Positions 1,487 through 15,053 of a stretch of 15,061 nt of DNA are shown here, one piece after another. Each line of letters opens with the position of its first letter. The stretch's first letter is position 1. Source of the stretch: a virus; the IMG/VR virus record IMGVR_UViG_3300021400_000072; one strand, given 5' to 3'. The position numbers and the translations under genes were made by a program. The notes beneath the pieces were generated by a model. The model was not told the DNA's origin and did not search any database. It saw only the letters and a program-made list of their open reading frames with translations.

Positions 1487-1501
1487 AAAGGAGATAATGA
1501 T

Positions 1502-2968: not shown

Positions 2969-2994
2969 TTTAAGAAAAAGTGAGGTGATTTAAC

Positions 2995-3399
2995 ATGAGT
3001 AAATTAAAAATAAAAGACAAAAACGGGAAATGGGTTGAAATTACTGGTATAAAGGGAGACAAGGGCGATACTGGTAAACAGGGTATCCAAGGTGAACGTG
3101 GAGAAAAAGGTGATAAAGGTGACACAGGTGCATCGGGTCGTGACGGTGTAGACGGCATCTCCCCGACCGTAACTATAACCCTCATCACAGGCGGTCACAG
3201 AATCACTATCACGGATAAGGACGGCACAAAGACGGCTGATGTGATGGACGGAACTACTCCAAGCCTTACCAACTATGTGCAGTTTACCGACCTTGCCACA
3301 ACATCCAGAGCAGGTGCAATGTCCGCACAGGATAAGAGCAGACTTGATGATGTGTATGCGGATTATTCAAGCGCACTTACAGCATTGGGGGTGATTTGA
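2995..3399 (+). CDS. Collagen-like (G-X-Y)n repeat protein, probable fibre component
   Basis: 134-aa ORF; RBS gtgaggtga; GIKGDKGDTGKQGIQGERGEKGDKGDTGASGRDGVDG collagen-like run; stop TGA immediately followed by next ATG (3401). Confidence 0.55.
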   Translation: MSKLKIKDKNGKWVEITGIKGDKGDTGKQGIQGERGEKGDKGDTGASGRDGVDGISPTVTITLITGGHRITITDKDGTKTADVMDGTTPSLTNYVQFTDLATTSRAGAMSAQDKSRLDDVYADYSSALTALGVI

Positions 3400-3400
3400 T

Positions 3401-4075
3401 ATGGCAACTCCATTAACAGATAGCATCAATGCCTTGACCACTTATGCTAATGATGTCACAGGGGCATCGGATACAACATTGTCGGATGCAGTGCATACAC
3501 TTGGGAGTGGGTATGGCGGTTCAGCAACTCTCATCACCAAAACCATCACCGCCAATGGCACATATTCCGCAAGTGATGATTCCGCAGATGGATATTCAGA
3601 GGTTACGGTAAATGTACCAAGCAGTGGATCATCTGCATGGACTAATGTTGCGGAAACGAGTTATTATGTTAGTACGACATCAACGACCACAGAAACGGTG
3701 GACACATGGGCAACAGGACATAGCGAGATATGGACAAGGTCTAAGTGGGTGTATGTTCGCATAAGGGACACGGCAGGAAAAAGAAATGACTATTTTTATG
3801 GAAGCGATCAATTTTTTATGATTCCTTCCACTACTTCGACATCAACAACGTCTGGTATTCGGTATTATATGAGATGTAATTCAGACGGAATTTATTTTGC
3901 TAGTTCAACATCTGGAACAGCTGGATTCGGAGTGTACGCTGATACGCTTTACTCAGACGGTAGAATAAGAATCCGTAAAAGATATAGCAGTAATGCTTCT
4001 TTTACCGTTGACGGCACATACAAAGTCGAAGTCTACCTTCTTGACCCGCCAACAGGCGCACCAATCTTTGAATAA
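3401..4075 (+). CDS. Ser/Thr-rich hypothetical protein, likely distal fibre/structural domain
   Basis: 224-aa ORF translationally coupled to upstream gene (TGATATG overlap-type junction); stop TAA. Confidence 0.45.
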   Translation: MATPLTDSINALTTYANDVTGASDTTLSDAVHTLGSGYGGSATLITKTITANGTYSASDDSADGYSEVTVNVPSSGSSAWTNVAETSYYVSTTSTTTETVDTWATGHSEIWTRSKWVYVRIRDTAGKRNDYFYGSDQFFMIPSTTSTSTTSGIRYYMRCNSDGIYFASSTSGTAGFGVYADTLYSDGRIRIRKRYSSNASFTVDGTYKVEVYLLDPPTGAPIFE

Positions 4076-4092
4076 CGAAAGGAGAATTATAA

Positions 4093-4334
4093 TGTATCAG
4101 TATTACATTACCGAAGTCCGCAAGACTATAACAGGCGAATTTGAGCATGACAACTATTGGGTCTACGATGAGGACGAGCAGACCGCAAGGCTCAAGGGCG
4201 AAGGAAAATTCCACGAAGTTCTGAGCCGTGCGGCAACGTCCACATTTGCAGAGCACGGAGCAATCCTGTTTACATCCACATGCTATCCCATCAAGCACGA
4301 ATGCTATACACATGGAGCAGAGCAGGAAGAATAA
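4093..4334 (+). CDS. Small hypothetical protein (80 aa), paralogue of 4528..4803
   Basis: RBS aaaggag 7 nt upstream of ATG 4093 (the ORF-track start at 3993 lies inside the upstream gene and lacks an RBS); MYQYYITEV...ARLKGEGKFHEVLS...FTS motif shared with paralogue; stop TAA. Confidence 0.5.
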
Positions 4335-4343
4335 GGAGACGCC

Positions 4344-4513
4344 ATGCTGACATACTGCTTTGAGACCACAGCATCAGCAGGTACGGAGATACATCAAACC
4401 TGTATGCCACATATTCTAATGGCACACTGACTATTGATACGGTATCCAACACGTCAGCAAGGCGATTTCGTTCGGGACAGACGTATAATTATACGTTGAT
4501 TAAGTGGACATAA
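4344..4513 (+). pseudogene. Possible frameshifted or decayed small gene between the two paralogues (ATG 4344 with good RBS runs only 28 codons; an overlapping start-less frame stays open from 4364 to TAA 4511)
   Basis: RBS aaggagacgcc + ATG 4344; frame 0 stops at TGA 4428; alternate frame open 4364-4513 without a start codon. Confidence 0.2.
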
Positions 4514-4527
4514 AGGAGGAAATAATT

Positions 4528-4803
4528 ATGACTCAATACTATATCATGGAACTTCAAAAATATGCGGACGGTTCTTACGGTGACATTAAACACATTGCGT
4601 ATGACGAAGACCCCACAAGAGCAAGACTTAAAGGTGAAAGTAAGTTTTATGAAATTTTATCGGCAGCCGCTGTAAGTGAATTGCCAGTACATGCCGCTAT
4701 CATGTTTACATCTGAGGGTGTACCTGTAATGAATCAGAGGTACGTACATGCGATTCCGCAGGAAGAGGTTGAGCCTAAAGAGGAAACACCTGAAGATGAA
4801 TAA
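4528..4803 (+). CDS. Small hypothetical protein (91 aa), paralogue of 4093..4334
   Basis: RBS aaaggagg 8 nt upstream of ATG 4528 (the ORF-track start at 4504 would place the RBS inside the ORF); MTQYYIMEL...ARLKGESKFYEILS...FTS shared with paralogue; stop TAA. Confidence 0.5.
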   Translation: MTQYYIMELQKYADGSYGDIKHIAYDEDPTRARLKGESKFYEILSAAAVSELPVHAAIMFTSEGVPVMNQRYVHAIPQEEVEPKEETPEDE

Positions 4804-4945: not shown

Positions 4946-5443
4946 ATGGCCAATTTTAATCAAAATGGGATGAATGGTATAATACCTAATCAATATCCCT
5001 ATACTAACAATTTAATAATGAATACTCCTTACGATAATTATCTTGGGAGAAATAATGTAACTGTAAACGCAAATGGTCAAAATTATCCAAATCAATTTTT
5101 AAAATGCAGGCCAGTTGCATCTAAAGAATAGGCAAGAGCCGCTCAGATAGATTTAGATGGCTCTCTATGGGTTTTTACTGATGTTGGAAATTAGAAAATT
5201 TATACTAAACAAATAAATTATGATGGAACAGCAACTTTTAAAACCTATGCTTTAACTGCTGATGAAAATCCTTATAATTCTTCTGAATATGTTACAAAAG
5301 ATGAATTTAATAGTGTAATACAAAGTTTAATGGCGGCAATTCAGTCTCAACCCGTTACCCAAAAAGTTTAGACCGAATCCGCATAGAATAATAAAAATAC
5401 TGGACAAAGCAGTAATAATAATTTTATAGTTAAGAGGGTATAA
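4946..5443 (+). CDS. Hypothetical N/Q/Y-rich protein (165 aa) containing 4 in-frame TAG codons (5129, 5192, 5369, 5384) that would have to be read as sense
   Basis: RBS aaaggagaatg; frame stays open through four TAGs with no TAA/TGA until TAA 5441, in roughly 70% AT DNA; next gene's ATG 6 nt downstream. Confidence 0.5.
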
Positions 5444-5448
5444 TTATT

Positions 5449-5679
5449 ATGAATGTAAATCCGATTCAATTAATAAATATGATAAAAAACGGTCAAAATC
5501 CTCAACAGCTTATGATGAATATTTTAGGACAAAATAATCCTATTCTTAAAAATGCAATGAATCTAGCGCAAAACGGGAACACATCTGCTTTATAGATGAT
5601 TGCACGTAATTTAGCACAACAAAGAGGTTTGGATTTTGATACAGAATTTGCAAAATTTAAAAATTATTTAAATCAATAA
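5449..5679 (+). CDS. Small hypothetical protein (76 aa) with 1 in-frame TAG (5593)
   Basis: RBS aagagggta; ATG 5449; single in-frame TAG then continues to TAA 5677; followed 12 nt later by next gene with RBS. Confidence 0.45.
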
Positions 5680-5691
5680 TGGGAGATACAA

Positions 5692-6459
5692 ATGTTTAAT
5701 AATAATACTAATGGATATTCCTTATCTGATATTGCAGCCGCAACAGGCAATAATAATAATGGTTTTGGTTTTAATGGCGATGGAGCCTGGATCTTTTTCT
5801 TATTTATTTTAATGCTTGCGGGCGGTTGGAATAATAACGGTTTCGGTGGAAATGGACAGCCTGCTGTTATAGCTGATGTTCAACGTGGTTTTGATCAGAG
5901 TGCCCTTATGAATAGTTTAAACGGTGTGACTGCCGCAATAAATACTGGCTTTTCAAATGCGGAAGTATCTCGTTGTAATTCACAAGCGAATATCCTACAA
6001 ACATTAAACAATAATCAAGCAAATCTATCTACTCAATTAAATACAATAGCAATGAATCAACAGAACTGTTGTTGTTAGAATAGAGCGGGATTAGCTGATC
6101 TGAAGTATACTGTAGCTACAGAAGCATGTGCAGACCGCACAGCAGTTACAGATGCTTTAAGAGATGTAATTGCATCAAATACAGCAAATACACAGGCCAT
6201 TCTTGATAAACTTTGTCAACAATAGATTGAATCTCTCAAGGCTCAGAATCAACAGCTTCAGATGCAGGGTTATCTTGCTAATTTAGCAGCTTCTCAAAAT
6301 GCTCAAACTGGACAGATTCTTGCAGATAACGCGGCTCAGACAGCTACATTACGTCAGGCCTTAAATCCTACTCCTATCCCTGCATATGTTGTTGCAAATC
6401 CTAATGGATGCAACTGCGGAAACTGGAACGGATGTTGCGGTAACGGTTTTTATAACTGA
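5692..6459 (+). CDS. N/G/C-rich membrane-anchored protein (255 aa) with 2 in-frame TAGs (6076, 6223). N-terminus carries a Gly/Asn-rich segment followed by a hydrophobic helix (GFGFNGDGAWIFFLFILMLAGGW), resembling the tiny-TM, Gly-rich spore-associated peptides of Firmicutes. C-terminus is Cys-rich (NPNGCNCGNWNGCCGNGFYN).
   Basis: RBS gggagatacaa + ATG 5692; ORF-track pieces 5692..6078 and 6262..6459 are in the same frame and joined only by two TAGs; stop TGA 6457. Confidence 0.55.
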
Positions 6460-6474
6460 TAAGGAGGTTAATCC

Positions 6475-6930
6475 ATGGCTAGTTATGTAACAACTGCTGA
6501 TGCAACAGTAGCTTTAAATGGAACGATTCCCTTTAATAGTGTTTCTATTCCCTGTAACAAAGGTAATATTATTCCTATTGTTCCTGGAATTCTTAACTTA
6601 AATGGTAATACTTCTAATCGTTTTGCAAGATATGATATTACTCTCCAAGGAAATATTCAAATCCCTACAGGCGGAACAGTTACTCCTATAGCAATTGGAA
6701 TTACTCTTAATGGGGTAGTAATACCGTAGAGTGTTGCAATCGTAACACCTGCGGCCGCAGGAGAATATTGGCATGTAAATACTACAGCGTCTGTAACTGT
6801 TCCTTGTGGCTGTTGTTTAACCGTATCTGGAGCATATATAGACGGTACTGAAGATGACCCAGCTATAACTCCTACCCCTTCTATTTTAGTTAGACGTGGG
6901 GCTTCATTAACAGGAATCAGGACAGCATAA
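6475..6930 (+). CDS. Hypothetical protein (151 aa) with 1 in-frame TAG (6727)
   Basis: RBS aaggaggttaatcc + ATG 6475; frame continues past TAG 6727 to TAA 6928; antisense ORF 6657..7016 is therefore spurious. Confidence 0.5.
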
Positions 6931-6940
6931 GGAGGAAAAT

Positions 6941-7504
6941 ATGGGAACTGAAGCATTAAAAATGATGAAAGACCAACTAATGAGTTGTGTACAAAGTCAA
7001 CTTGGTGATATATCAAAGGCAGATGCCCATGAACTTGGTGAAGCTGTTGATATGATAAAAGATTTGTCTGAAGCGATATACTATTGTACTATTACTGATT
7101 CAATGGAAAAAGCAGAAGAAAAAGAAAAAACTTCTGTTAATAATATAAATTATTATACCACCCCATATCCAGATTATAGAAATATGGAACGCAATAATGG
7201 ATATATGTATTATTCTGGCGGGAATGGTGGTAATATGGGAGGTAATTCTAGCTCCAATGGCGGAACTACCTCTTATTATACTGAAATGATGAGAGATCCC
7301 CGTTAGGGAAGATCTCCAATAAGAAGAAGAATGTATATGGAAGGTAAAGAAATGCATAAAGATACAAGTTCTCAACTTCATGAACTAGAAGCATACCTTC
7401 AAGAACTTTCTTCAGACATAACAGAAATGATTAAAGACGCATCACCAGAAGAGAGAACTACATTACGTCAAAAAATGACCACATTAGCTAATAAAATTAA
7501 CTAA
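6941..7504 (+). CDS. Hypothetical protein (187 aa) with Gly/Asn/Tyr-rich low-complexity segment and 1 in-frame TAG (7304)
   Basis: RBS aaggaggaaaat + ATG 6941; frame open past TAG 7304 to TAA 7502. Confidence 0.5.
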
Positions 7505-7505
7505 T

Positions 7506-7820
7506 ATGTTTTTAATCAATAATGTTTATTGGAAACTCTCTTTTGTTGCTCCTAATTTTCCTTTATTACAAAGATTAAACGGAGAATTTTCAATAGGAGC
7601 ATGTGATAATCTTACTCGAACAATTTATATAAACGAAACGTTACAAGGAGATTTATTGCGGAAGGTACTTTGCCACGAAATAACACATGCTGCAATGTTT
7701 TCTTATAATGTTAATCTTTCTCTTGAGCAATAGGAATTGATAGCAGATTTAATTTCTACATATGGAGATGAGATTATTTATATAACAAATAAAATTTTTA
7801 ATAAATTAGGAAATATATAA
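7506..7820 (+). CDS. Small HExxH zinc-metallopeptidase-like protein (ImmA/IrrE-type motif VLCHEITHAAM) with 1 in-frame TAG (7731)
   Basis: ATG 7506 abuts upstream TAA (translational coupling); HEITH motif in translation; frame continues through TAG 7731 to TAA 7818; strong terminator follows. Confidence 0.45.
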
Positions 7821-7824
7821 ATTG

Positions 7825-7866
7825 ATAGCTGTCGGTTCTACTTTTAACCGACAGCTATTTTTTTTT
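7825..7866 (+). terminator. Rho-independent terminator (13-bp perfect stem atagctgtcggtt/aaccgacagctat, 7-nt loop, T9 tract)
   Basis: Direct inspection; lies right after the TAA of the HExxH gene. Confidence 0.85.
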
Positions 7867-7890
7867 AGAATTATAAAAAAGGGGAGATAA

Positions 7891-8400
7891 ATGAATCTAT
7901 TATAGACAATTGAAAAAATTATTCATCAAATTCGTCCTTTTGAAGGTATTAGTTCTTGTGTAATTTTTATTTTATTTATAATCGGCACAGTAATACAAAT
8001 TTCTCCTATAAAAATTAATCCTTGGGATTTTTTATTAGGGTGGATAGGAGAAAGATTTAATTCTGGAATTAATAAAAAAGTAGGGCAGTTAGAAAAGAAA
8101 ATAGATTAGCATATAGAAAGTAGTAAGAATAAAGATTTAAAATAGCAAAGATAGTATATTATTTCCTTTGTCGATGAAGGTGTTAATGGAAAACGACATA
8201 CAAAAGAATCTTTCTAGAATGCGATACGAGCTTGTGATGCATATGAGAAATATGTTCGTTAGAATGATATTGAAAATGGCGTTATCGTATCTTCTATTAG
8301 TGCCATTAGATTAAAATATGAACAACATTTAATTAATGCTGATTTTGCAACAGGCGAACATTATGTTGAAAATGCTAAATAGATGCAAAATGAAAACTGA
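7891..8400 (+). CDS. Membrane protein, holin-like: N-terminal hydrophobic helix, then coiled-coil/charged region. Contains 7 in-frame TAGs (7903, 8107, 8143, 8152, 8215, 8260, 8380).
   Basis: RBS aaaaggggagataa + ATG 7891; 169-codon frame with 7 TAG and zero TAA/TGA until TGA 8398; reads naturally if TAG is Gln (KIDQHIESS..KQQRQYI..FQNAIRACDAYEKYVRQND); flanked by terminators on both sides. Confidence 0.55.
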
Positions 8401-8470: not shown

Positions 8471-8519
8471 CAAAAAGCCTCGATATGAGTCATATTCATA
8501 TCGAGGCTTTATTTTTTTA
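8471..8519. terminator. Bidirectional rho-independent terminator (15-bp perfect stem aaagcctcgatatga/tcatatcgaggcttt flanked by A5 and T7 runs) between convergent genes
   Basis: Direct inspection; separates + holin-like gene and - vWA gene. Confidence 0.85.
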
Positions 8520-10022
8520 TCTAATTACGGCATATCTTTCACTATTAATAGCTTCAAGCATTAAGTCGTAACCTGTCTTACCAGTAATAACTTGCTTGAA
8601 AATAGTAGGAGACATACCGCTTACAAACGATACATTAGGACCTGCATCCAGGATTGTATTCTGGCGGGCATCCACATTCCAATAGACCAGCTTAGGAAGC
8701 TGTAGGCCATAAGCTGCCCACTTCTGACGAATCTTCTCCATCTCTGTTGAAGCAGAACGCTTTGTCCAATGACTATCACTCCAATAACCAGTACCACTAT
8801 CAATTTCCATATCAGAAATAACTACAATGGTCTTAGGAATGTCACTCTGCTTAACACCTCTCTTAGTTGCTGTCTTTAGAAGTAAATCAAATACAGCTTC
8901 TAGGTTAGTATTATCACAAAGATTTGTCTTGTAGATACGGCGAGCCTTATCTACAAAATCAATACCTTCTGTCTTAATCAGCTGAGGATGTGAAGCAAAA
9001 CTAATATAGTAATTCTTAAAAGGACCACCAATACGTTCTGCGCAATACAAACCTAGACTGATTGCTACGTTAAGAGGAGCCGCCGCATCTTTACCAGTCA
9101 TAGAACCAGAAGTATCTACGACACACATCATGCTACAATCCTTACCATTAAGATAATCAGGAAGATTATCCCAATACTTATTAATCATAGCACGTTCAGT
9201 TTCACTAAGAGCCTCAAAGTTGTAAGACCATGTTGAAGCCTTAACTGCCTTAGCTACCACTTCATAAGGGTAAAGTACAGAAGCATTAACCTTTGTATTC
9301 TTATCTTTTGCAAAAGATTCATACTTCTTAGCGATAATATCACGTCTTGCAAAAGCATTACGATAAATAATACCTGCGCGAGAAGGAATCTTATCAAACT
9401 CAATCTTATCCCATTCGTTGGCGGACATCAGTCTTTCAAGAACATTAATCTTAACTCTTAGCTTTGAAAGCATCTGACGATACTGCTTAGAAGTAACTCC
9501 TAAATACTGTCTAATCTTCTTTGCTCTTGCAATTGTTTCCTTACTTGAAGCATTTTCAGAAGGAAGCCACTTAGCGATAAGGCTAATACCATTCTTCTTA
9601 CATGCCATATCCTCACGAAGCTGCTTTTCAATAAGAGCCATTACATTCTTTTCAACAGGAGTGTCGAAAAGTTCGAACAGGTCATCATATCTACCATATT
9701 CAGGAAGATATTCAATCAAGTTACGGGCGCGGGCAGGCTTGTTCTCTGCCAACCAGCGGAAGCATGTACGGAAGAATCTACGTTCACCCTGACCACCACG
9801 GCAGTCACGAATATAGAATAGACACTTCAGTGCAAGAACTGAATCCTCTTCAAAGGCGTTCTTGAAAAGAAGGATACAATCTTCGTCTGTACGCTTACGA
9901 TAAGCGGCACCCATAGCAAACAATGTATAAACGTCACTATTTAACTTTTTATAAGCGAGTGCTCCATTCTCTGTTCTCTTGTAATTGAAATCGTTTGAAA
10001 GCTGATTCATAAATGTATTCAT
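8517..10022 (-). CDS. vWA-domain protein with MIDAS motif (VVDTSGSM). Its N-terminal alpha-helical module resembles the DUF2828 family and the TROVE (Ro60-like) module (TENGALAY...LFAMGAAYRK).
   Basis: 501-aa uninterrupted ORF; DxSGS MIDAS signature near residue 300; N-terminal motif pattern similar to the Ro60 N-x-x-G-x-x-A-F...L-F/I-x-L-G motif; family assignment from memory, not searched. Confidence 0.7.
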   Translation of the reverse strand: MNTFMNQLSNDFNYKRTENGALAYKKLNSDVYTLFAMGAAYRKRTDEDCILLFKNAFEEDSVLALKCLFYIRDCRGGQGERRFFRTCFRWLAENKPARARNLIEYLPEYGRYDDLFELFDTPVEKNVMALIEKQLREDMACKKNGISLIAKWLPSENASSKETIARAKKIRQYLGVTSKQYRQMLSKLRVKINVLERLMSANEWDKIEFDKIPSRAGIIYRNAFARRDIIAKKYESFAKDKNTKVNASVLYPYEVVAKAVKASTWSYNFEALSETERAMINKYWDNLPDYLNGKDCSMMCVVDTSGSMTGKDAAAPLNVAISLGLYCAERIGGPFKNYYISFASHPQLIKTEGIDFVDKARRIYKTNLCDNTNLEAVFDLLLKTATKRGVKQSDIPKTIVVISDMEIDSGTGYWSDSHWTKRSASTEMEKIRQKWAAYGLQLPKLVYWNVDARQNTILDAGPNVSFVSGMSPTIFKQVITGKTGYDLMLEAINSERYAVIR

Positions 10023-10251: not shown

Positions 10252-10352
10252 ATTTAAAAAATAAATTTTATTCTTTGCCTATCTATTTCTCTGCAAATAA
10301 GTAATTTTATTAAAAATAATTTTGTTTTCTTTTTCATAAAATACTCCTTTAA

Positions 10353-10424
10353 TACTCCCAGCGGGAATCGAACCCACATCGAAGGCTTAGAAGGCCTTTG
10401 CTTTATCCTTTAAACTATAGGAGT
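10353..10424 (-). tRNA. tRNA-Arg (anticodon TCT)
   Basis: Hand-folded cloverleaf: 7-bp acceptor (one G-U), T-loop TTCGATT, anticodon stem AAGGC/GCCTT, loop CTTCTAA. Confidence 0.7.
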
Positions 10425-10520
10425 ATAATAAGGCTCTTTGCTACTTCTTTTCCCAACCTTCTGAGTGATGGTACTTACACAGCGGTTCGCTTCAGATTTT
10501 CAGAATTACCTTATATTAAA

Positions 10521-10592
10521 TATCCCATACAAGAATCGAACTCGCATTTTTAGGGCCGTAACCTAACGGTTTATCCATTAGCCTAATGGGAT
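10521..10592 (-). tRNA. tRNA-Arg (anticodon ACG), slightly atypical (G37, one D-stem mismatch)
   Basis: Perfect 7-bp acceptor ATCCCAT/ATGGGAT; anticodon stem TTAGG/CCTAA, loop TTACGGC; T-loop TTCGATT. Confidence 0.55.
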
Positions 10593-10597
10593 ATAAT

Positions 10598-10667
10598 TGC
10601 GCCACTACGAATCGAACGTAAATCTCCCCCGTATGCAAGGGGGTATGTTACCATTACACCACGGCGC
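10598..10667 (-). tRNA. tRNA-like with 8-nt anticodon loop TTGCATAC (contains CAT; Met/Ile2-like with one extra nucleotide). Possible pseudogene or noncanonical tRNA.
   Basis: Acceptor GCGCCGT/GTGGCGC (two G-U pairs); anticodon stem CCCCC/GGGGG enclosing 8 nt; 4-bp T-stem; positions 8-9 are GG. Confidence 0.4.
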
Positions 10668-10772
10668 GAGCATTTATCATATTTTTTGTTTGTTTACGGT
10701 TAGCTACTCCGCACCCTAAACAACTTTTTTGATAAATGTTAATACAATACATTAATTAACTTTTGTACTAAA

Positions 10773-10845
10773 CAGGAGCGGAAGGATTCGAACCTTCATA
10801 ATCACGGTGTTGGAGACCGTTGCTGTACCATTGAGCCACGCCCCT
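10773..10845 (-). tRNA. tRNA-Trp (anticodon CCA)
   Basis: Perfect T-stem GAAGG/CCTTC with TTCGAAT loop; anticodon stem ACGGT/ACCGT, loop CTCCAAC; 7-bp acceptor with one G-U. Confidence 0.7.
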
Positions 10846-10852
10846 TTAGTTT

Positions 10853-11272
10853 TTAACGATACCCGTTAGAAAACCCAGGAAGATTACAATACTCACGAAT
10901 AAATTCTTCAGGAGAATTATTAAAAAGACCATCTAACTGTTCAAGAGAAAGATTAGTTTCTTTTACAATAGGATAAATCTCATACTGGAGATTTTCGCTC
11001 ATAAGTTCATTAAGAACATCGGTATATTCATCATCTGCTCCTGAAGTAGAATCTTCCATATATTCATCTAATTCATCTTCATCCCAACCTATTTCGTTGG
11101 CGGCAGCCGCTTCCAAATCATCCATAATAGAAGAATATTCTTCCATAATAGCATAAGACTCGTCAATAGCCATTTCTTCAACTTCTTCTTCAGTACCCTC
11201 TGCAACAAAATAGGATACCATTCCGTGCATTCCATTATACATCTGTTCACAAGCGATTACTGCATAAAGCAT
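10853..11272 (-). CDS. Highly acidic protein (139 aa, D/E-rich), possible DNA-mimic/anti-restriction-type protein (speculative)
   Basis: RBS aaaggaag 9 nt upstream; stop TAA; very high Asp/Glu content in translation. Confidence 0.5.
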   Translation of the reverse strand: MLYAVIACEQMYNGMHGMVSYFVAEGTEEEVEEMAIDESYAIMEEYSSIMDDLEAAAANEIGWDEDELDEYMEDSTSGADDEYTDVLNELMSENLQYEIYPIVKETNLSLEQLDGLFNNSPEEFIREYCNLPGFSNGYR

Positions 11273-11552
11273 AGTTTAAATCTTCCTTTCTTTTTTTAAT
11301 AATGCACACCACAAAATTGTACACAGGTTAAATACATGTGATGTGCTATAACCTGTTTTGCCTAGCGTTTCAGATGTGTTTTAGTCCTAATTTATTTAGG
11401 ACAATCACGCATAGTCCCATTCACATCAGGGGCTTTAGGTCTCACTGTATGTAGCCGGATTCACCCTTCCTATCCCCCACTCATACAGGATGGTTGATCG
11501 TTTTTATACCGCATCTCCATTCTACGGTCAACCGAGCATTTGACTCAGTTTA

Positions 11553-11635
11553 AGCCAGCAATAGGATTTGAACCTATATCGTTTTAGGCCTTACACTCCT
11601 TGGGGGAGCCGCTTTACCAATTAAGCTATGCTGAC
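11553..11635 (-). tRNA. Type II (long variable arm) tRNA-like, anticodon CAA (Leu) by position but with poor anticodon-stem pairing; possibly degenerate
   Basis: Good acceptor (GTCAGCA/TGCTGGC), D-arm GCTT/AAGC and T-arm ATAGG/CCTAT. The anticodon region folds best as a CTCC/GGAG stem with a 5-nt loop. The variable arm forms no clear hairpin. Confidence 0.4.
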
Positions 11636-11643
11636 ATTTTTAG

Positions 11644-11715
11644 CAGGCCCAGATGGAATCGAACCATCACATCGTGAGTCAAAGTCACGTGCGCTAGCCG
11701 TTACGCTATGGGCCC
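11644..11715 (-). tRNA. tRNA-Gln (anticodon TTG)
   Basis: Anticodon stem CGTGA/TCACG, loop CTTTGAC; T-arm GATGG/CCATC; acceptor GGGCCC/GGGCCT. Confidence 0.7.
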
Positions 11716-11734
11716 ATATACAAGAGACATTATT

Positions 11735-11806
11735 AGTAGACCGCGGGATTCGAACCCGCATATCAAAATTCGCAGTTTTGTATCTTATCCATTAGATTAA
11801 ATCCAT
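11735..11806 (-). tRNA. tRNA-like element with intact T-arm, anticodon arm (loop CTGCGAA, anticodon GCG) and D-arm, but a 5' acceptor strand that cannot pair with the 3' strand; probable pseudo-tRNA or tRNA mimic
   Basis: T-stem GCGGG/CCCGC, anticodon stem CAAAA/TTTTG, D-stem ATCT/AGAT all perfect; expected 5' strand GGTCTAC is absent (observed ATGGATT). Confidence 0.35.
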
Positions 11807-11884
11807 TAATTTTTTTTATTGCTGTGTGTCTCTTTATCAACTTTCTATATATATTATAATAAAAATTTTTATTTTTTTCAAATA

Positions 11885-11959
11885 AGCACAGAGTGGGATT
11901 TGAACCCACGAATAACGGTTTTGCAGACCGCTGCGGTAACCAGGCTGCGCCATCCGTGC
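11885..11959 (-). tRNA. tRNA-Cys (anticodon GCA)
   Basis: T-stem GTGGG/CCCAC; anticodon loop CTGCAAA; 7-bp acceptor with one G-U. Confidence 0.7.
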
Positions 11960-11963
11960 AAAA

Positions 11964-12003
11964 GAAAGGGATATGAAACGTATAAATTTCATACCCTTTT
12001 TTA
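11964..12003. terminator. Hairpin terminator (about 13-bp stem with one bulge, loop cgtataaa, T-runs on both sides) between - gene 12006..12194 and tRNA-Cys
   Basis: Direct inspection. Confidence 0.6.
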
Positions 12004-12005
12004 AA

Positions 12006-12194
12006 TTAATCGACCGATTTTACTTCAATATATTTAGGCTTGATTAAAACCTGTTTCTGTAATGCATGAGTTATCTGGAACATGCGGAAACGTGCTTCCC
12101 GCCTAGCTTCATCTCGTTCTTTTTTATTCTCAATATCATTAACAGGATTAAAAGATTCCAATGCATTAGTGCCTATTGTTTTCCACTTAGACAT
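12006..12194 (-). CDS. Small basic hypothetical protein (62 aa)
   Basis: ORF with RBS aaggagag upstream; followed (transcript sense) by a hairpin terminator. Confidence 0.4.
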   Translation of the reverse strand: MSKWKTIGTNALESFNPVNDIENKKERDEARREARFRMFQITHALQKQVLIKPKYIEVKSVD

Positions 12195-12208
12195 TAATAA
12201 ACTCTCCT

Positions 12209-12556
12209 TTAGTTAAGAAAATCCTTCAAAATTCTTTCAAATTCATTGCTGGTAATAGGAGTCGCTACAGGTCTCTTTTCTTTCTGCGAAGGTGACTCCA
12301 GAACAGCTTCTACTAAATCTACCAGCAAAGGATTTTCATTTTCATATGTTTTAACATATTTAAGAATTTCTTTATTAAGAGCCTGAATCTTTTCTTCAAG
12401 GTTTGCTTTTGCGATAGCCTTTTCTGCTTCAAATCTACGTTTTTCTTCTGCTTCTTTACGTTTCTCTTCTGCTTCTGTCTTCTTTTTGAGTTCAGCTTCA
12501 ATACATTCTTTTTCTGAATCAAAAATCTCATCCAGAACTTCACTATAAAATTTCAT
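12209..12556 (-). CDS. Lys/Glu-rich coiled-coil hypothetical protein (115 aa)
   Basis: RBS gagaggaaaaaagaATG; charged heptad-like EEKRKEAEEKRR repeats. Confidence 0.5.
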   Translation of the reverse strand: MKFYSEVLDEIFDSEKECIEAELKKKTEAEEKRKEAEEKRRFEAEKAIAKANLEEKIQALNKEILKYVKTYENENPLLVDLVEAVLESPSQKEKRPVATPITSNEFERILKDFLN

Positions 12557-12597
12557 TCTTTTTTCCTCTCTTTTTTAAAATATTTTTATTAACGAAA

Positions 12598-12671
12598 GGT
12601 GGCTAACGGGACTTGAACCCGTAACAGGCGGTACCACAAACCGCTGGACTACCAAATTGTCCTATAACCAC
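12598..12671 (-). tRNA. tRNA-His (anticodon GTG), discriminator C
   Basis: Anticodon stem GCGGT/ACCGC, loop TTGTGGT; T-stem ACGGG/CCCGT; discriminator C73 as expected for His. Confidence 0.7.
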
Positions 12672-12673
12672 AG

Positions 12674-12747
12674 CTGGAGTGGTGAGACTCGAACTCACGG
12701 CATCGTGATCCCAAATCACGCATTCTAGCCAACTGAATTACACCCCA
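12674..12747 (-). tRNA. tRNA-Pro (anticodon TGG)
   Basis: Anticodon stem CGTGA/TCACG, loop TTTGGGA; D-stem ATTC/GAAT; T-stem GTGAG/CTCAC; 2 nt from tRNA-His. Confidence 0.7.
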
Positions 12748-12806
12748 ATATACAAGACACATAAATAAGTATTGATCTACCCATTGATCTATTTTGTCTA
12801 TTCTGG

Positions 12807-12851
12807 CAACAAAAATCGGATTTGAACCGATAACATATACTAAACGTATAA
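12807..12851 (-). tRNA. tRNA 3'-half remnant (acceptor 3' strand + T-arm) followed by a short hairpin; no matching 5' half
   Basis: T-stem ATCGG/CCGAT with ATTTGAA loop; no complementary acceptor strand downstream; flanked by attgctgtgtgtgtc motif. Confidence 0.3.
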
Positions 12852-12880
12852 ATTGCTGTGTGTGTCTTATTATTAAATTA

Positions 12881-13114
12881 TTAACCTAACATAGCAAAAT
12901 CTATAAATCTTTTTACATCATCTGCATTATAACAAACCAATTCCATCTCAGGAATATTTGAATCTTCAAACATCTTAGCAAAAGCAATATATTGAGTAAG
13001 ACGACTCTTTAGATTTAATCTATCGCCTTCTTCTGTTACTAATTCAACTTTTCCTGTACACTTATCAACTGTTTCAAAAAACTTTTTAATATCATTAATA
13101 TGATATAACTTCAT
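12881..13114 (-). CDS. Small hypothetical protein (77 aa)
   Basis: RBS aaaaggagaataaATG; stop TAA. Confidence 0.45.
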   Translation of the reverse strand: MKLYHINDIKKFFETVDKCTGKVELVTEEGDRLNLKSRLTQYIAFAKMFEDSNIPEMELVCYNADDVKRFIDFAMLG

Positions 13115-13235
13115 TTATTCTCCTTTTATATAATCTCTATAAGTACAATATTCTTCAAACGTTCCTTTGAAGCCATTTTCAACAGCCTTAGAATATTCTT
13201 CATTTAGAACTTTTGAATAACTTATAGATTCCTAA

Positions 13236-13541
13236 TTAAACTACATAACCGATTGCTAACTCATCTGTATACTCTCTTTCTCTTGCGGTCATTGCAAGAA
13301 AACGTTTAATGTCAGAATGGCTCCACCAGTGTCCGCCATGTCTACCTTTTTCTTCTCCAAACGCCGGTCTACGCTTAGAAACTTTAGGTTTACAAAGAGA
13401 ACATGAACAATGAATTTTACCTTTACTATACTGATGAAGGTGAGGATACCATTCACTACCATCTCTTTCTTTACAAATTTTCTGCTTTCTGATTGCCTTT
13501 GTCCAATCATTATGTCTCTTTTCTGCAAGTGTTCTACACAT
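13236..13541 (-). CDS. Cys/His-rich small protein (101 aa), probable zinc-binding; embedded in tRNA array
   Basis: Internal ATG (13539-13541) has RBS aaggag 8 nt upstream; the longer ORF-track start (13616) would overlap tRNA-Ser; CSCSLC ... HGGHWWSH motifs. Confidence 0.45.
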   Translation of the reverse strand: MCRTLAEKRHNDWTKAIRKQKICKERDGSEWYPHLHQYSKGKIHCSCSLCKPKVSKRRPAFGEEKGRHGGHWWSHSDIKRFLAMTAREREYTDELAIGYVV

Positions 13542-13574
13542 GATAAACTCCTTTGAAACTAGGTTAACAGAAAG

Positions 13575-13659
13575 CGGTGCGAGAGGGATTCGAACCCCCA
13601 GCCCAATTAAGAGCAACGGTTTTCAAGACCGCACCTCCTCCCCACTAAGGTACCGCACC
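13575..13659 (-). tRNA. tRNA-Ser (anticodon TGA), type II
   Basis: 85 nt; anticodon stem + loop CTTGAAA; long variable arm; T-loop TTCGAAT. Confidence 0.65.
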
Positions 13660-13842
13660 ATATCAAGGCTTAAAAAGTTTCATTTTCTCTTTTTTCAGAG
13701 GTCAATTCCTATTAAGAATAAGAAATAGAAAACTTTCAAATAAAAGAAACTTGTCTATTTTACGACCAAAATTCTCCTAAGAATCATGTTAAATCTTGTA
13801 ATTTTAAACCCATTAAAAATAAAATTGCCGTATAAGCCTTAG

Positions 13843-13930
13843 CGCGGATGAGTGGATTCGAACCACCGGACCCAAATGTAGGGTCAATACCTTAGCAGGG
13901 TACCGCATTAAACCTCTCTGCCACATCCGC
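13843..13930 (-). tRNA. tRNA-Ser (anticodon GCT), type II
   Basis: 88 nt; perfect acceptor GCGGATG/CATCCGC; variable-arm hairpin GACCC/GGGTC; anticodon loop CTGCTAA. Confidence 0.7.
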
Positions 13931-13939
13931 AAATTGGGA

Positions 13940-14012
13940 TAGCCCGCCGGAGAATCGAACTCCGATTTCTGGTTTTAGAGACCAGCGTCTTAAACCGTTT
14001 GACCACCGGGCC
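13940..14012 (-). tRNA. Amber suppressor tRNA (anticodon CTA, decodes UAG); type I, amino-acid identity not determinable by eye
   Basis: Perfect 5-bp anticodon stem CTGGT/ACCAG with 7-nt loop CTCTAAA (U33, anticodon CUA, A37); perfect T-stem CGGAG/CTCCG with TTCGATT loop; acceptor 6/7 bp. Confidence 0.7.
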
Positions 14013-14137
14013 ATACCAAGACAGATTAAAAATTGCTTTAATTAGATTACAAGTCCAATGCAAAAATTAAAATAGATTGCTGTTTCTGTCTTTCATCTTA
14101 TAAATATATTATATAATAATTTTTTTAAAAAATCAAA

Positions 14138-14211
14138 TGCATGATATAGGATTTGAACCTATGCCCCTTTCGGTGTAAACGAAATGCTCATCCCAGCTGA
14201 GCTAATCATGC
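14138..14211 (-). tRNA. tRNA-Val (anticodon TAC)
   Basis: Perfect acceptor GCATGAT/ATCATGC; anticodon stem TTTCG/CGAAA, loop TTTACAC; D-stem GCTC/GAGC. Confidence 0.75.
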
Positions 14212-14379
14212 ATATTGGCGGGAAACTCCCGCCTAATCCGACTTTTGAGTTTCACAGGTATCGGGGAGGAACCAGGGATTAAATCCAGCCCACCTTAATA
14301 TTTAGTTTCCCATCTCCTCGGGGTAACTAACAAACCTGAGGGTCTTCCATATCGCACGTGCATATTGATATAGAATAAA

Positions 14380-14455
14380 TGGACCGTGTGGGAATTGAAC
14401 CCACCTGATTTTCTGTGTGCAAGACAGATGACCACCCCGTGCAGTCCCACAGCCC
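14380..14455 (-). tRNA. tRNA-Ala (anticodon TGC)
   Basis: Anticodon stem TCTGT/ACAGA, loop CTTGCAC; T-stem GTGGG/CCCAC; acceptor GGGCTGT/ACGGTCC with two G-U; 7-nt variable region. Confidence 0.55.
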
Positions 14456-14681
14456 AGTACTAAGAGGCTTGATTACCCTCTTTACAGCAGTTTGATCCTG
14501 CTTGCCGATGACGTTATAGGTCCGCCGCCCGCACATTTATTTGCTAAAACACGGTTTCCAGGGTATCTTTGTATAATCACATTACCGCAAAGAGGTATAT
14601 ACCTTTATCATATTATAGACGCGTTTCTATAATATTCTCCCAAATTTTTTATTGTACATAGATGGTAAAGAGACAATAAAA

Positions 14682-14755
14682 TACTACGAAGTGGACTCGA
14701 ACCACTGACGACTTCCTTATCAGAGAAGCATTCTAACCTACTGAATTATCGTAGT
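14682..14755 (-). tRNA. tRNA-Ile (anticodon GAT)
   Basis: Perfect acceptor ACTACGA/TCGTAGT; T-stem AGTGG/CCACT; anticodon loop CTGATAA. Confidence 0.75.
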
Positions 14756-14969
14756 AAATAAGGGTTAAAAGGAAAGGAAAATGCATTTTTACTTCGTAAT
14801 AACCTTTCTCAGTTAACCATCTAATTTTTATGCCTGTCTAGCCTTATACTAGAATATTACATATGCGATAAGTTGTTCTGTTGCATCGCTATTTTGAACT
14901 ATCCCTGTCTCCTTATCAAAATTAGACACCTTTACTATATTTCAAGGCTTTTTGCGGCGTCCCGCTTAG

Positions 14970-15053
14970 TCCTGGGAGAGGGAATCGAACCCACTCGGTG
15001 CCGAAGCCATGGGATTTACAGTCCCACCCGTCTCCTTAGCGGTCTACCCCAGG
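14970..15053 (-). tRNA. tRNA-Tyr (anticodon GTA), type II
   Basis: 84 nt; anticodon stem TGGGA/TCCCA, loop CTGTAAA; long variable arm; T-stem has one mismatch. Confidence 0.6.

Follow-up and report, generated by a model that had tools for sequence, protein, structure and literature searches.

A phage lineage in which the amber codon TAG appears to be read as glutamate

Introduction

Two kinds of stop-codon recoding are currently described in phages, TAG to Gln and TGA to Trp, and this restriction has itself served to argue that no synthetases other than GlnRS and TrpRS can be hijacked. A block of seven phage genes raises the question of whether these two cases are the whole repertoire: each gene stays open across at least one TAG codon, and an earlier note on this DNA suggested that the codon is read as glutamine. 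Here we ask whether TAG is a sense codon in the block and, if so, which amino acid it specifies. The window referred to throughout is the whole stretch of DNA analysed, 15,061 nucleotides of IMG/VR record IMGVR_UViG_3300021400_000072. Comparison of codons and tRNAs makes it very likely that this phage lineage uses TAG as a sense codon for glutamate, by way of a phage-encoded tRNA-Glu-type CUA tRNA, and that TAA and TGA remain stops.

Amber codons are read through in a seven-gene block

Seven plus-strand genes between positions 4946 and 8400, all starting with ATG, carry 17 in-frame TAG codons (4, 1, 2, 1, 1, 1 and 7 in genes 1 to 7). The earlier note had placed these open reading frames at the same coordinates and in the same frames, with one to seven TAGs each, including four in 4946-5443 and seven in the 169 codons of 7891-8400, and our recount returns the same values. 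Its statement that no TAA or TGA occurs before the true stop also stands: there are none in 1107 codons, and the genes terminate with TAA (five) or TGA (two), whereas the two off-frames of the block, about 2200 codons in total, contain 125 TAA and 62 TGA (8.4% per codon). By a hand estimate, the odds of about 1100 in-frame codons without TAA or TGA are roughly 1e-42.

Under code 11, in-frame pieces of at least 50 amino acids account for 1794 of the 3455 nt of the block (52%); with TAG as sense, 3342 nt (97%) lie within the seven genes. The code-11 fragments at 5692-6078 and 6262-6459 are a single frame cut by TAG, as had been proposed. TAG terminates none of the gene-sized ORFs of the window, which all finish with TAA or TGA, again in line with the earlier reading, and the gene-sized ORFs of two relatives (L222 and L225) end likewise. 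Profile searches with the TAG-translated proteins gave PHROG matches that continue across the TAGs of block genes, database proteins are full length where public DNA copies carry TAG, and the TAG sites of the block are conserved in relatives. Two details need amendment. The block is low in GC as described, at an AT content of 67% rather than about 70% (62% for the whole window), and the ribosome-binding site reported before every gene is not evident at gene 6, whose ATG at 7506 lies one base past the gene 5 stop without a clear Shine-Dalgarno sequence. Read-through of TAG in the block is thus confirmed, and the sequence comparisons support reassignment of amber to sense in this part of the phage.

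The genes of the block and their amber positions

Gene 1 (4946..5443, plus strand, 165 codons; TAG at 5129, 5192, 5369 and 5384) encodes an Asn/Gln-rich protein with the motif KCRPV[SA]SK[E/D/*][E/*]ARA, in which an asterisk marks TAG; across 24 orthologous loci the TAG at amino acid 62 aligns with GAA in 14, GAG in 4 and TAG in 6. Gene 2 (5449..5679, plus strand, 76 codons; TAG at 5593) has the motif SAL[E/*]MIARNLA, and its TAG column in orthologues reads GAA 12, GAG 1 and TAG 11. Gene 3 (5692..6459, plus strand, 255 codons; TAG at 6076 and 6223) encodes a protein with one hydrophobic segment and Cys-rich motifs, which matches phrog_16490 over residues 14-250 (E = 5e-30) with both TAGs inside the match. 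It has 199 relatives in IMG/VR; the column at amino acid 129 contains GAA 36, GAG 29, GAT 7, GAC 3 and CAG 1, and a 99%-identical relative (L002) has E at the TAG position of the window.

Gene 4 (6475..6930, plus strand, 151 codons; TAG at 6727) belongs to phrog_20016 and is strongly conserved, with 2315 homologues and at least 82% identity over the 120 closest clusters. Its AF2 model (pTM 0.63) matches the BclA C-terminal domain, BxpB/ExsFA, trimeric lectins and phage tail-fibre receptor-binding domains in a Foldseek search of the PDB (E about 1e-4, TM about 0.5). The predicted fold is a TNF/C1q-like beta jelly roll similar to the C-terminal domain of BclA, and the protein is probably a fibre-tip or receptor-binding protein. 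Among the 119 closest cluster representatives, the TAG site is E in 86 and 'Q' in 33; in the five 'Q' entries for which the DNA was checked, the codon was TAG every time.

Gene 5 (6941..7504, plus strand, 187 codons; TAG at 7304) carries the motif RDPR[E/*]GRSP, and its TAG column holds TAG 9, GAA 9 and GAG 5. Gene 6 (7506..7820, plus strand, 104 codons; TAG at 7731) encodes a small HExxH metallopeptidase-like protein that matches phrog_1233 and, weakly, Pfam DUF6782, SprT-like and M78 families; HEITH is invariant in the family, and the column of its TAG (amino acid 76) reads TAG 10, GAA 10 and GAG 3. Gene 7 (7891..8400, plus strand, 169 codons; TAG at 7903, 8107, 8143, 8152, 8215, 8260 and 8380) has the highest TAG density of the block, at 4.1% of codons. 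Its product, predicted to have a hydrophobic helix at the N-terminus and a helical domain after it, matches phrog_37604 over residues 27-152 (E = 1e-23; 136 homologues), and its AF2 model (pLDDT 62) is too poor for a fold search.

A terminator-like hairpin on the plus strand at 7824..7859, with a 14-bp stem followed by the T-run TTTTTTTT, lies between genes 6 and 7. A second, bidirectional terminator-like hairpin at 8474..8510, with 17-bp and 15-bp stems and T-rich sequence on either side, separates gene 7 from a convergent TROVE-like gene. Genes 1-6 apparently form one operon and gene 7 a separate unit; the block has no excess of promoter-like sites over shuffled sequence.

Amber codons align with glutamate codons

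We addressed the identity of the inserted amino acid by a likelihood test over 225 TAG columns in 27 gene families drawn from some 80 related contigs, with about 15-20 kb read per relative genome. As the columns come from related sequences and are not fully independent, the bootstrap was done by family; cluster 13, an antisense artefact, was left out of the final likelihood. TAG alternates with GAA/GAG in 27 families. The log-likelihood at TAG columns is -571.7 for E, -675.7 for D and -678.6 for Q, so that Glu exceeds Gln by 107 nats (95% bootstrap range 37-189), and Glu is best in 1999 of 2000 bootstraps. The same alignments provide an internal control: Gln codons of the window align with Q in 66% and Glu codons with E in 74%, and the TAGs of the window align with E in 59% and with Q in about 1%.

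Several further comparisons point the same way. TAG occurs in 44 of 179 conserved E columns and in 5 of 95 conserved Q columns (Fisher p = 3e-5), about a five-fold difference in per-column rate, and the codon of the closest non-TAG neighbour at 75% identity or more is GAA in 20 cases, GAG in 5, CAA in 3 and CAG in 2. The share of GAG among GAR codons is 8% in the block versus 19-27% elsewhere, and CAG is not depleted. TAG also falls on catalytic residues: in the gene 6 orthologues of L004, L009 and L012 it encodes the Glu of HExxH itself, and it stands at the residue aligned with RuvC E66 in 8 of 16 resolvases of relatives. These RuvC-like genes lie outside the window; they score 22.1 against a Pfam cut-off of 22.2 and match the PDB profile 1HJR with E = 1.3e-5.

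The method can separate Glu from Gln, since the same pipeline returns Gln for an unrelated recoded portal family, in 1993 of 2000 bootstraps and as published (neighbour codons CAG 14, CAA 8, GAA 2). A BLAST search of annotated phages for the suppressor of the control phage gave no match. Code 15 was used to translate the close database homologues of gene 7, which leaves its protein-level residue counts unable to split E from Q, and codon-level alignments were therefore used instead. The same contamination affects the counts for both TAGs of K*QR*Y, for which only five homologues are available at the DNA level, too few to tell the two residues apart. The earlier argument that sequence contexts read naturally with Gln does not hold up: CQQ*IESLK has Glu or Lys in orthologues, and such contexts carry no weight. 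On this evidence, the amino acid at TAG appears to be glutamate, not glutamine.

A CUA suppressor tRNA with a tRNA-Glu body

A suppressor tRNA gene with anticodon CUA lies in the same window at 13940..14012 on the minus strand, 5.5 kb downstream of the block (ARAGORN; 55.6 bits with the Rfam tRNA model). It is part of a minus-strand array of 17 tRNA genes at 10352..15053, interspersed with small TAG-free ORFs; in a close relative (L084) the array reaches 28 tRNAs and includes Glu(UUC) and Glu(CUC). The 77-nt ARAGORN reading with eight acceptor pairs was replaced by a 73-nt canonical cloverleaf on the basis of Rfam and covariation; single-sequence MFE folds of the tRNAs gave no cloverleaves and were not used. 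We found five sequence variants of the suppressor on at least seven contigs, with compensatory changes in 12 of 20 pairs, which, as judged from these sequences, shows selection on the gene as a tRNA.

The suppressor has G1.U72, U8, the D-stem G10-U11-C12, a 4-nt variable loop and A73, and its anticodon loop is C32-U-CUA-A37-A38. The D-arm motif GGUCAANCGGUU(N)AAGAC with U11-A24 is found in tRNA-Glu in 113 of the 113 cellular tRNAs that share it. BLAST matches annotated tRNA-Glu, and the nearest isotype is Glu, with Gln outside the eight nearest; the phage's own tRNA-Gln was typed correctly and matches tRNA-Gln. The combination of G1.U72 and A73 occurs in 6 of 112 cellular tRNA-Glu, five of them CUC isoacceptors, and the anticodon differs from that of tRNA-Glu(CUC) by C36A only (CUC to CUA), which departs from the YUC required of tRNA-Glu and makes the suppressor a derivative that no longer reads Glu codons. 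We class the body of the suppressor as Bacillota tRNA-Glu(CUC). U11-A24 and G1.U72 are invariant in all five variants, and the C32-A38 pair of the suppressor is rare among cellular Bacillota tRNA-Glu (5 of 112). The determinants of E. coli GluRS include U35, A37, U11-A24 and the absence of nucleotide 47 (PMC9976931), and the suppressor shares each of these.

Some candidate relationships were set aside. The suppressor is only about 63% identical to the phage tRNA-Glu(UUC) or tRNA-Glu(CUC) and is not a recent copy of either. Exact D-arm matches in L081-L083 are chance occurrences in coding DNA, several anticodon-arm matches lie in coding DNA or unrelated suppressors, and two 'CUA' tRNAs at bacterial loci are mis-registered tRNA-Arg(UCU).

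Alternative readings of the amber codon

A first alternative is ambiguous decoding, in which competition between GluRS and GlnRS, or partial transamidation, would place a mixture of Glu and Gln on the suppressor, so that each TAG site would be a statistical Glu/Gln position. About 10% of TAG columns are Gln-like, and the invariant G1.U72 corresponds neither to the tRNA-Glu norm (G1-C72) nor to the tRNA-Gln norm (U1-A72); in E. coli, tRNA-Glu amber suppressors used in the laboratory led to some Gln incorporation. Among the 58 strongly conserved columns with TAG, five are Gln, and in gene 2, one small family, the likelihood slightly prefers Q over E. Such a minority is nevertheless expected if TAG encodes Glu, since CAG to TAG is a single transition and Q to E is a conservative change, and TAG at the catalytic Glu in half of the nuclease family argues for a mostly Glu product. 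We regard a mixture as unlikely.

The second alternative is that TAG encodes Gln, the standard phage code 15 and the reading of the earlier note, with the CUA tRNA charged by GlnRS or charged with Glu and then amidated by GatCAB. Code 15 is the sole amber reassignment reported for phages, public gene callers already give these genes Gln at TAG, and a few TAGs sit at invariant Gln (for example, a neighbouring pair in gene 2 of L009 and a single site in gene 5). CUA anticodons attract GlnRS, and in E. coli both U35 and CUA favour this enzyme. Against this stand the likelihood difference, the five-fold excess of TAG in conserved Glu columns and the catalytic glutamates encoded by TAG, together with a Glu-type tRNA body that lacks the U1-A72 used by the amidotransferase. 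The control family, moreover, displays the genuine TAG-to-Gln signal that these genes do not. Taken together, these observations contradict the earlier assignment and make glutamine quite improbable.

A third reading keeps TAG as a stop, in decaying or fragmented genes or with only low-level programmed read-through; code 11 does break the frames, and host RF1 should recognise UAG. The open frames, the profile matches that span TAGs, the strong conservation of proteins such as that of gene 4, the TAG sites common to relatives and the absence of TAG as a terminator all speak against it, as does the existence of a dedicated, covarying CUA tRNA, and read-through of low efficiency would serve no purpose in a 169-codon gene with seven TAGs. 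This reading is very improbable. Pyrrolysine, the ARAGORN label 'tRNA-Pyl', rests on the CUA anticodon and can be dismissed, as the tRNA fits the general model and has an ordinary GG-containing D-loop (AAACGGTTTAA), a TTCGATT T-loop and a 5-bp anticodon stem, which are not features of tRNA-Pyl, no pyl genes were found in the window or in the loci read from relatives, and TAG aligns with Glu, not Lys.

Proposed mechanism and genome context

Our preferred reading, TAG as glutamate, suggests the following model. Host glutamyl-tRNA synthetase would charge the suppressor tRNA with glutamate, and the charged tRNA would outcompete release factor 1 at UAG, so that full translation of TAG-containing genes would have to await the phage tRNA; TAA and TGA would keep their stop function. 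Charging by GluRS is an assumption, because C36, a strong determinant for the E. coli enzyme, is altered in the suppressor.

The source is a large tailed phage with relatives on contigs of 130-178 kb; a megablast search with the whole window as query gave no match among 50,697 phage genomes. TAGs in this window are limited to the seven-gene module, and the genes at 62-4803 and those on the minus strand have no in-frame TAG. The adjoining tail-fibre genes are TAG-free, higher in GC and not found in a relative of 97% identity, which makes recent acquisition from a standard-code source probable. Relatives have about 10 TAGs per 1000 codons, a density that is the same on both strands and gives no support to a simple early/late split by strand across the clade. 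We consider it likely that a clade of phages of about 130-180 kb, probably from gut or rumen Bacillota, reads TAG as Glu with TAA and TGA as stops, using a tRNA-Glu(CUC)-derived suppressor in which G1.U72 and C32-A38 would be adaptations for charging and UAG reading. Such a code is uncatalogued for any virus or prokaryote.

If this is true, the lineage breaks the Gln/Trp rule and adds a third route, through GluRS, and its tRNA would be a natural, evolved, Glu-inserting amber suppressor of interest for suppressor tRNA engineering. There are also consequences for annotation. Public protein sets carry Q at these TAGs, as in the 33 gene 4 representatives, which corrupts catalytic motifs such as HExxH and misleads annotation and proteomic searches; code-15 gene callers would systematically put Q for E in thousands of database proteins.

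Comparison with known systems

Our search of open-access papers and bioRxiv found no earlier report of TAG read as Glu in phages. Borges et al. found that phages differing from their host code show only TAG to Gln and TGA to Trp (10.1101/2021.08.26.457843). Like the code 15 gut phages, which include crAss-like, Lak, Agate and phAss-1 phages (10.1101/2021.08.26.457843; PMC9523058; PMC8346664; PMC10607447), the phage described here is low in GC and tailed, has TAG in many genes and never as a stop, keeps some genes TAG-free, carries its tRNA(CUA) within a phage tRNA array and presumably infects a standard-code host. In those phages, however, the residue aligned with TAG is Gln (75-85% in Lak), which proteomics has confirmed, whereas here alignment gives Glu, and the phAss-1 suppressor is typed Gln, whereas the suppressor here has a tRNA-Glu body.

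A parallel for the tRNA is the engineered human tRNA-GluV13 (CUA), which inserts Glu and needs C32-A38 for efficient UAG reading (PMC12204705); the phage tRNA likewise combines a tRNA-Glu body, a CUA anticodon and C32-A38. Unlike the phage tRNA, which is known from its sequence, tRNA-GluV13 is eukaryotic, man-made and therapeutic, and bacterial GluRS determinants differ. Phages with TGA to Trp (code 4) and the phages of Absconditabacteria with code 25 also recode one stop with a phage-borne suppressor tRNA, but their codon and amino acid differ from the TAG and Glu seen here. To our knowledge, the Peritrich ciliate nuclear code (NCBI table 30, TAA/TAG = Glu) is the sole catalogued code in which TAG is Glu. 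It is eukaryotic and nuclear, recodes TAA as well as TAG and has no virus involved, whereas TAA is the main stop here. E. coli supE is a tRNA-Gln with a CUA anticodon, an amber suppressor through a single anticodon change, and one such change would similarly yield the UAG reader of the phage. Suppressors of the supE type only partly suppress nonsense mutations, which are themselves rare; in the present case TAG accounts for about 1-1.5% of codons, in genes that are conserved and across a whole clade, which is a true reassignment.

Read-through of TAG in the block

The seven plus-strand genes between 4946 and 8400 (genes 1-7: 4946-5443, 5449-5679, 5692-6459, 6475-6930, 6941-7504, 7506-7820 and 7891-8400) stay open across 4, 1, 2, 1, 1, 1 and 7 in-frame TAG codons, exactly the 17 counted in an earlier note that proposed amber reassignment here. 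None has an internal TAA or TGA and every terminator is TAA or TGA; the two off-frames of the same DNA hold 125 TAA and 62 TGA codons, and the chance that neither occurs in about 1100 in-frame codons was calculated by hand as roughly 1e-42. The comparison of genetic codes and the profile search suggested in that note agree with its reading: in-frame pieces of at least 50 amino acids cover 52% of 4946-8400 under code 11, in which TAG is a stop, against 97% covered by the seven genes with TAG as sense, and PHROG matches cross TAG codons in gene 3 (residues 14-250), gene 4 (1-118) and gene 7 (27-152). That TAG is a sense codon in the block is thus confirmed with very little room for doubt. The public gene calls made on these contigs cover the whole length of the genes but cannot be translated with the standard table.

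Across the clade TAG makes up about 10 in every 1000 codons and is found in some two-thirds of genes, on both strands; in-frame TAG is absent from the window's minus-strand genes and from the upstream genes at 62-4803 (+), which belong to collagen-repeat tail fibres and have 42% GC, against 33% in the block. More distant relatives (L022 onward) carry 0-3 TAGs in these genes, mostly 0 or 1 and usually near the C-termini, where they are probably real stops.

The amino acid inserted at TAG

To identify the residue, 80 related IMG/VR loci were gathered via gene 3 and their orthologues aligned codon by codon. The window's TAG sites correspond to GAA or GAG in relatives and hardly ever to CAA or CAG, as seen at residue 62 of gene 1 (GAA 14, GAG 4, TAG 6), residue 49 of gene 2 (GAA 12, GAG 1, TAG 11), residue 129 of gene 3 (GAA 36, GAG 29, GAT 7, GAC 3, CAG 1), residue 122 of gene 5 (TAG 9, GAA 9, GAG 5) and residue 76 of gene 6 (TAG 10, GAA 10, GAG 3). 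The motifs at several sites are unambiguous: RDPR[E/TAG]GRSP, SAL[E/TAG]MIARNLA, CCC[E/D/TAG]NRA and [E/TAG]Q[E/TAG][E/TAG]L, in the last of which the Q position is never TAG. These alignments also provide an internal control: opposite the window's Gln codons Q makes up 66%, opposite its Glu codons E makes up 74%, and opposite its TAGs E makes up 59% and Q about 1%. Glu was the best residue for the window's TAG sites in 1860 of 2000 bootstraps, and Gln in 0.

Extending the test to every ORF family of the loci (27 families, 225 TAG columns) gave log-likelihoods of -571.7 for E, -675.7 for D and -678.6 for Q, with Glu best in 1999 of 2000 bootstraps over families and E favoured by all families with at least 10 TAG columns. 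Among conserved columns, those for Glu contain TAG in 44 of 179 cases and those for Gln in 5 of 95; for all others the count is 9 of about 2560. The nearest relative with another codon at the site (75% identity or more) has GAA in 20 cases, GAG in 5, CAA in 3 and CAG in 2. Codon usage in the block shows the pattern expected if TAG took the place of GAG, since GAG is depleted (4 GAG to 44 GAA, against 26:70 and 16:70 elsewhere) but CAG is not (15:44).

Catalytic sites offer a functional view of the same question. In the gene 6 orthologues of L004, L009 and L012 the Glu of an invariant HExxH motif is TAG. Relatives also encode a RuvC-like resolvase, whose profile aligns with E. coli RuvC (1HJR, E = 1.3e-5) with the equivalents of D7, E66 and D138/D141 in register, and the E66 equivalent is TAG in 8 of 16 of these proteins. 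RuvC loses its activity on E66Q substitution, and in zincins the Glu of HExxH serves as the general base; with Gln at these TAG sites the enzymes would be dead.

At residue 85 of gene 4, where the TAG lies in the context NGVVIP[TAG]SVAIVTPAAAGEYWH, close homologues in the database have 86 E and 33 Q; all five of the 'Q' entries checked at the DNA level proved to be TAG, which indicates that the clade is being annotated with code 15 (TAG read as Gln). The pipeline itself does recover Gln where it applies. L206 is an unrelated contig that encodes a CUA tRNA itself (2532-2605) and has a portal gene with 10 TAGs; the identical procedure on 80 relatives of this portal gave log-likelihoods of -81.1 for Q, -102.3 for K and -105.0 for E, Q being best in 1993 of 2000 bootstraps, and neighbour codons of CAG 14, CAA 8 and GAA 2. 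The published code 15 is thus recovered in that family, and the window's clade differs from it. L206 and L227-L306, which served as the control, form an unrelated family of phage contigs of roughly 50-130 kb whose portal genes have up to 10 in-frame TAGs aligning with Gln. The Gln assignment suggested in the earlier note is not borne out by the TAG columns, and the residue at TAG is most probably Glu, a reading in which we place considerable confidence.

The suppressor tRNA

ARAGORN predicts 17 minus-strand tRNA genes at 10352-15053, one of them, at 13940-14012 (-), with the anticodon CUA (73 nt, 55.6 bits to the Rfam tRNA model). This suppressor is found on at least seven contigs, and in five sequence variants compensatory changes preserve the cloverleaf, with 97% of cells paired and both sides changed in 12 of 20 pairs, values reached by none of 500 shuffles. 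No variation occurs in the anticodon loop (CUCUAAA), in the D-arm, in the pair U11-A24 or in G1.U72.

Its best matches among annotated phage genomes are tRNA-Glu; the window's tRNA-Gln(UUG) matches tRNA-Gln in the same comparison. The D-arm motif retrieved 120 bacterial loci, nearly all Bacillota, and the tRNAs detected there were Glu in 113 of 113 cases (88 UUC, 24 CUC, 1 ambiguous). Compared with 560 tRNAs of these loci, the suppressor comes closest to the Glu isotype (best 0.78, median 0.70), and Gln is absent from the top eight. The closest cellular tRNAs are tRNA-Glu(CUC) from uncultured Clostridia of the gut and rumen; their anticodon loop reads CUCUCAC against CUCUAAA in the suppressor, and C36->A gives the amber anticodon. 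Determinants of E. coli GluRS include U35, A37, U11-A24 and a 4-nt variable loop (PMC9976931), all present in the suppressor; U1-A72, the pair that amidotransferases use, is absent from it (PMC9976931). The combination of G1.U72 and A73 occurs in 6 of 112 cellular tRNA-Glu. The suppressor has C32-A38, as do just 5 of the 112; in an engineered human tRNA-Glu(CUA) C32-A38 is required for UAG reading and Glu is still inserted (PMC12204705). Judged by its sequence, the suppressor is a derivative of tRNA-Glu.

L151, a Bacillota MAG, and four other bacterial loci have a tRNA-Glu(CUC) with G1.U72, A73 and A38, as in the suppressor, which suggests that this minority type is the kind of tRNA from which it was derived. 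Comparison with the phage's tRNA-Glu(UUC) and tRNA-Glu(CUC) shows that the suppressor was not recently copied from either; the close relative L084 has a full array of 28 tRNAs including both.

Other RNA genes of the array

The tRNA at 10596-10669 (-) has an anticodon stem of CCCCC/GGGGG closing a loop of 8 nucleotides, UUGCAUAC; ARAGORN is undecided between Cys and Met ('gcat'), Rfam scores it at 43.5 bits, and its core recurs in L001, L002, L205 and L222. In a phage that recodes, such a large anticodon loop could point to unusual decoding. Besides an ordinary 73-nt tRNA-Trp(CCA) at 10773-10845 there is an 83-nt 'tRNA-Trp(CCA)' at 11553-11635 (-) with C for U at position 33, a variable arm of about 19 nt and 46.6 bits in Rfam. 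In the related contig L308 the tRNA array includes a tmRNA gene (3426-3735; tag peptide GNYSYAMAA) that lies within a few hundred bases of the Glu-type CUA suppressor.

Modules around the block

Samples in which these phages are present include the ENA assemblies ERZ12302819 and ERZ12302853 and the IMG metagenomes 3300021399 and 3300021400, and IMGVR_UViG_3300021400_001206, IMGVR_UViG_3300021256_000064 and ENA NODE_39_length_177934 are complete genomes of the clade. Near-identical DNA exists in ENA assemblies (L205, 93%; L222, 97%), and the L222 alignment starts only at position 4514, indicating that the tail-fibre module has been exchanged; relatives have other fibre genes at that site, including one for a protein of about 1500 amino acids with 22-31 TAGs in five of eight copies. 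The window's four tail-fibre-like genes at 62-4075 (+), which contain collagen triple-helix repeats, lack TAG and have 42% GC, are absent from L222, and L001, L222 and L225 have different ones in their place; the window's four look like a host-range module that was swapped in recently from a source using the standard code. Between them and the block lie paralogous small ORFs at 3993-4334 and 4504-4803 (+), which share the motif YYI.E..K...G....D..W.YDED...ARLKGE.KF.E.LS.AA.S and have no family match.

Gene 4, which is both abundant and conserved, is predicted to adopt a TNF/C1q-like jelly roll resembling the C-terminal domain of BclA and the receptor-binding domains of phages, a modelled fold that would fit a fibre-associated structural module. 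A division into one transcription unit of genes 1-6 and another of the TAG-dense gene 7 is suggested by terminator-like hairpins at 7824-7859 and 8474-8510. Just 3' of the recoded block the relative L225 has two Mtd_N-domain genes (12347-13809), Mtd_N being the major tropism determinant type of diversity-generating retroelements. A 501-aa TROVE/Ro-like protein (8517-10022, -; DUF2828 and DUF7788/vWA), matching phrog_850 'RNA-binding protein' at E = 1e-123, directly adjoins the tRNA array; in L222 (12043-14411) its gene is interrupted by a LAGLIDADG endonuclease ORF with 6 TAGs.

Relation to known amber recoding

Phage amber recoding in the searchable literature has always been assigned to Gln; the Lak study occasionally aligned TAG with E and inferred Q, and for one huge phage the assignment went no further than 'TAG to X'. 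We found no report of TAG as Glu in phages in that literature (open-access papers and bioRxiv).
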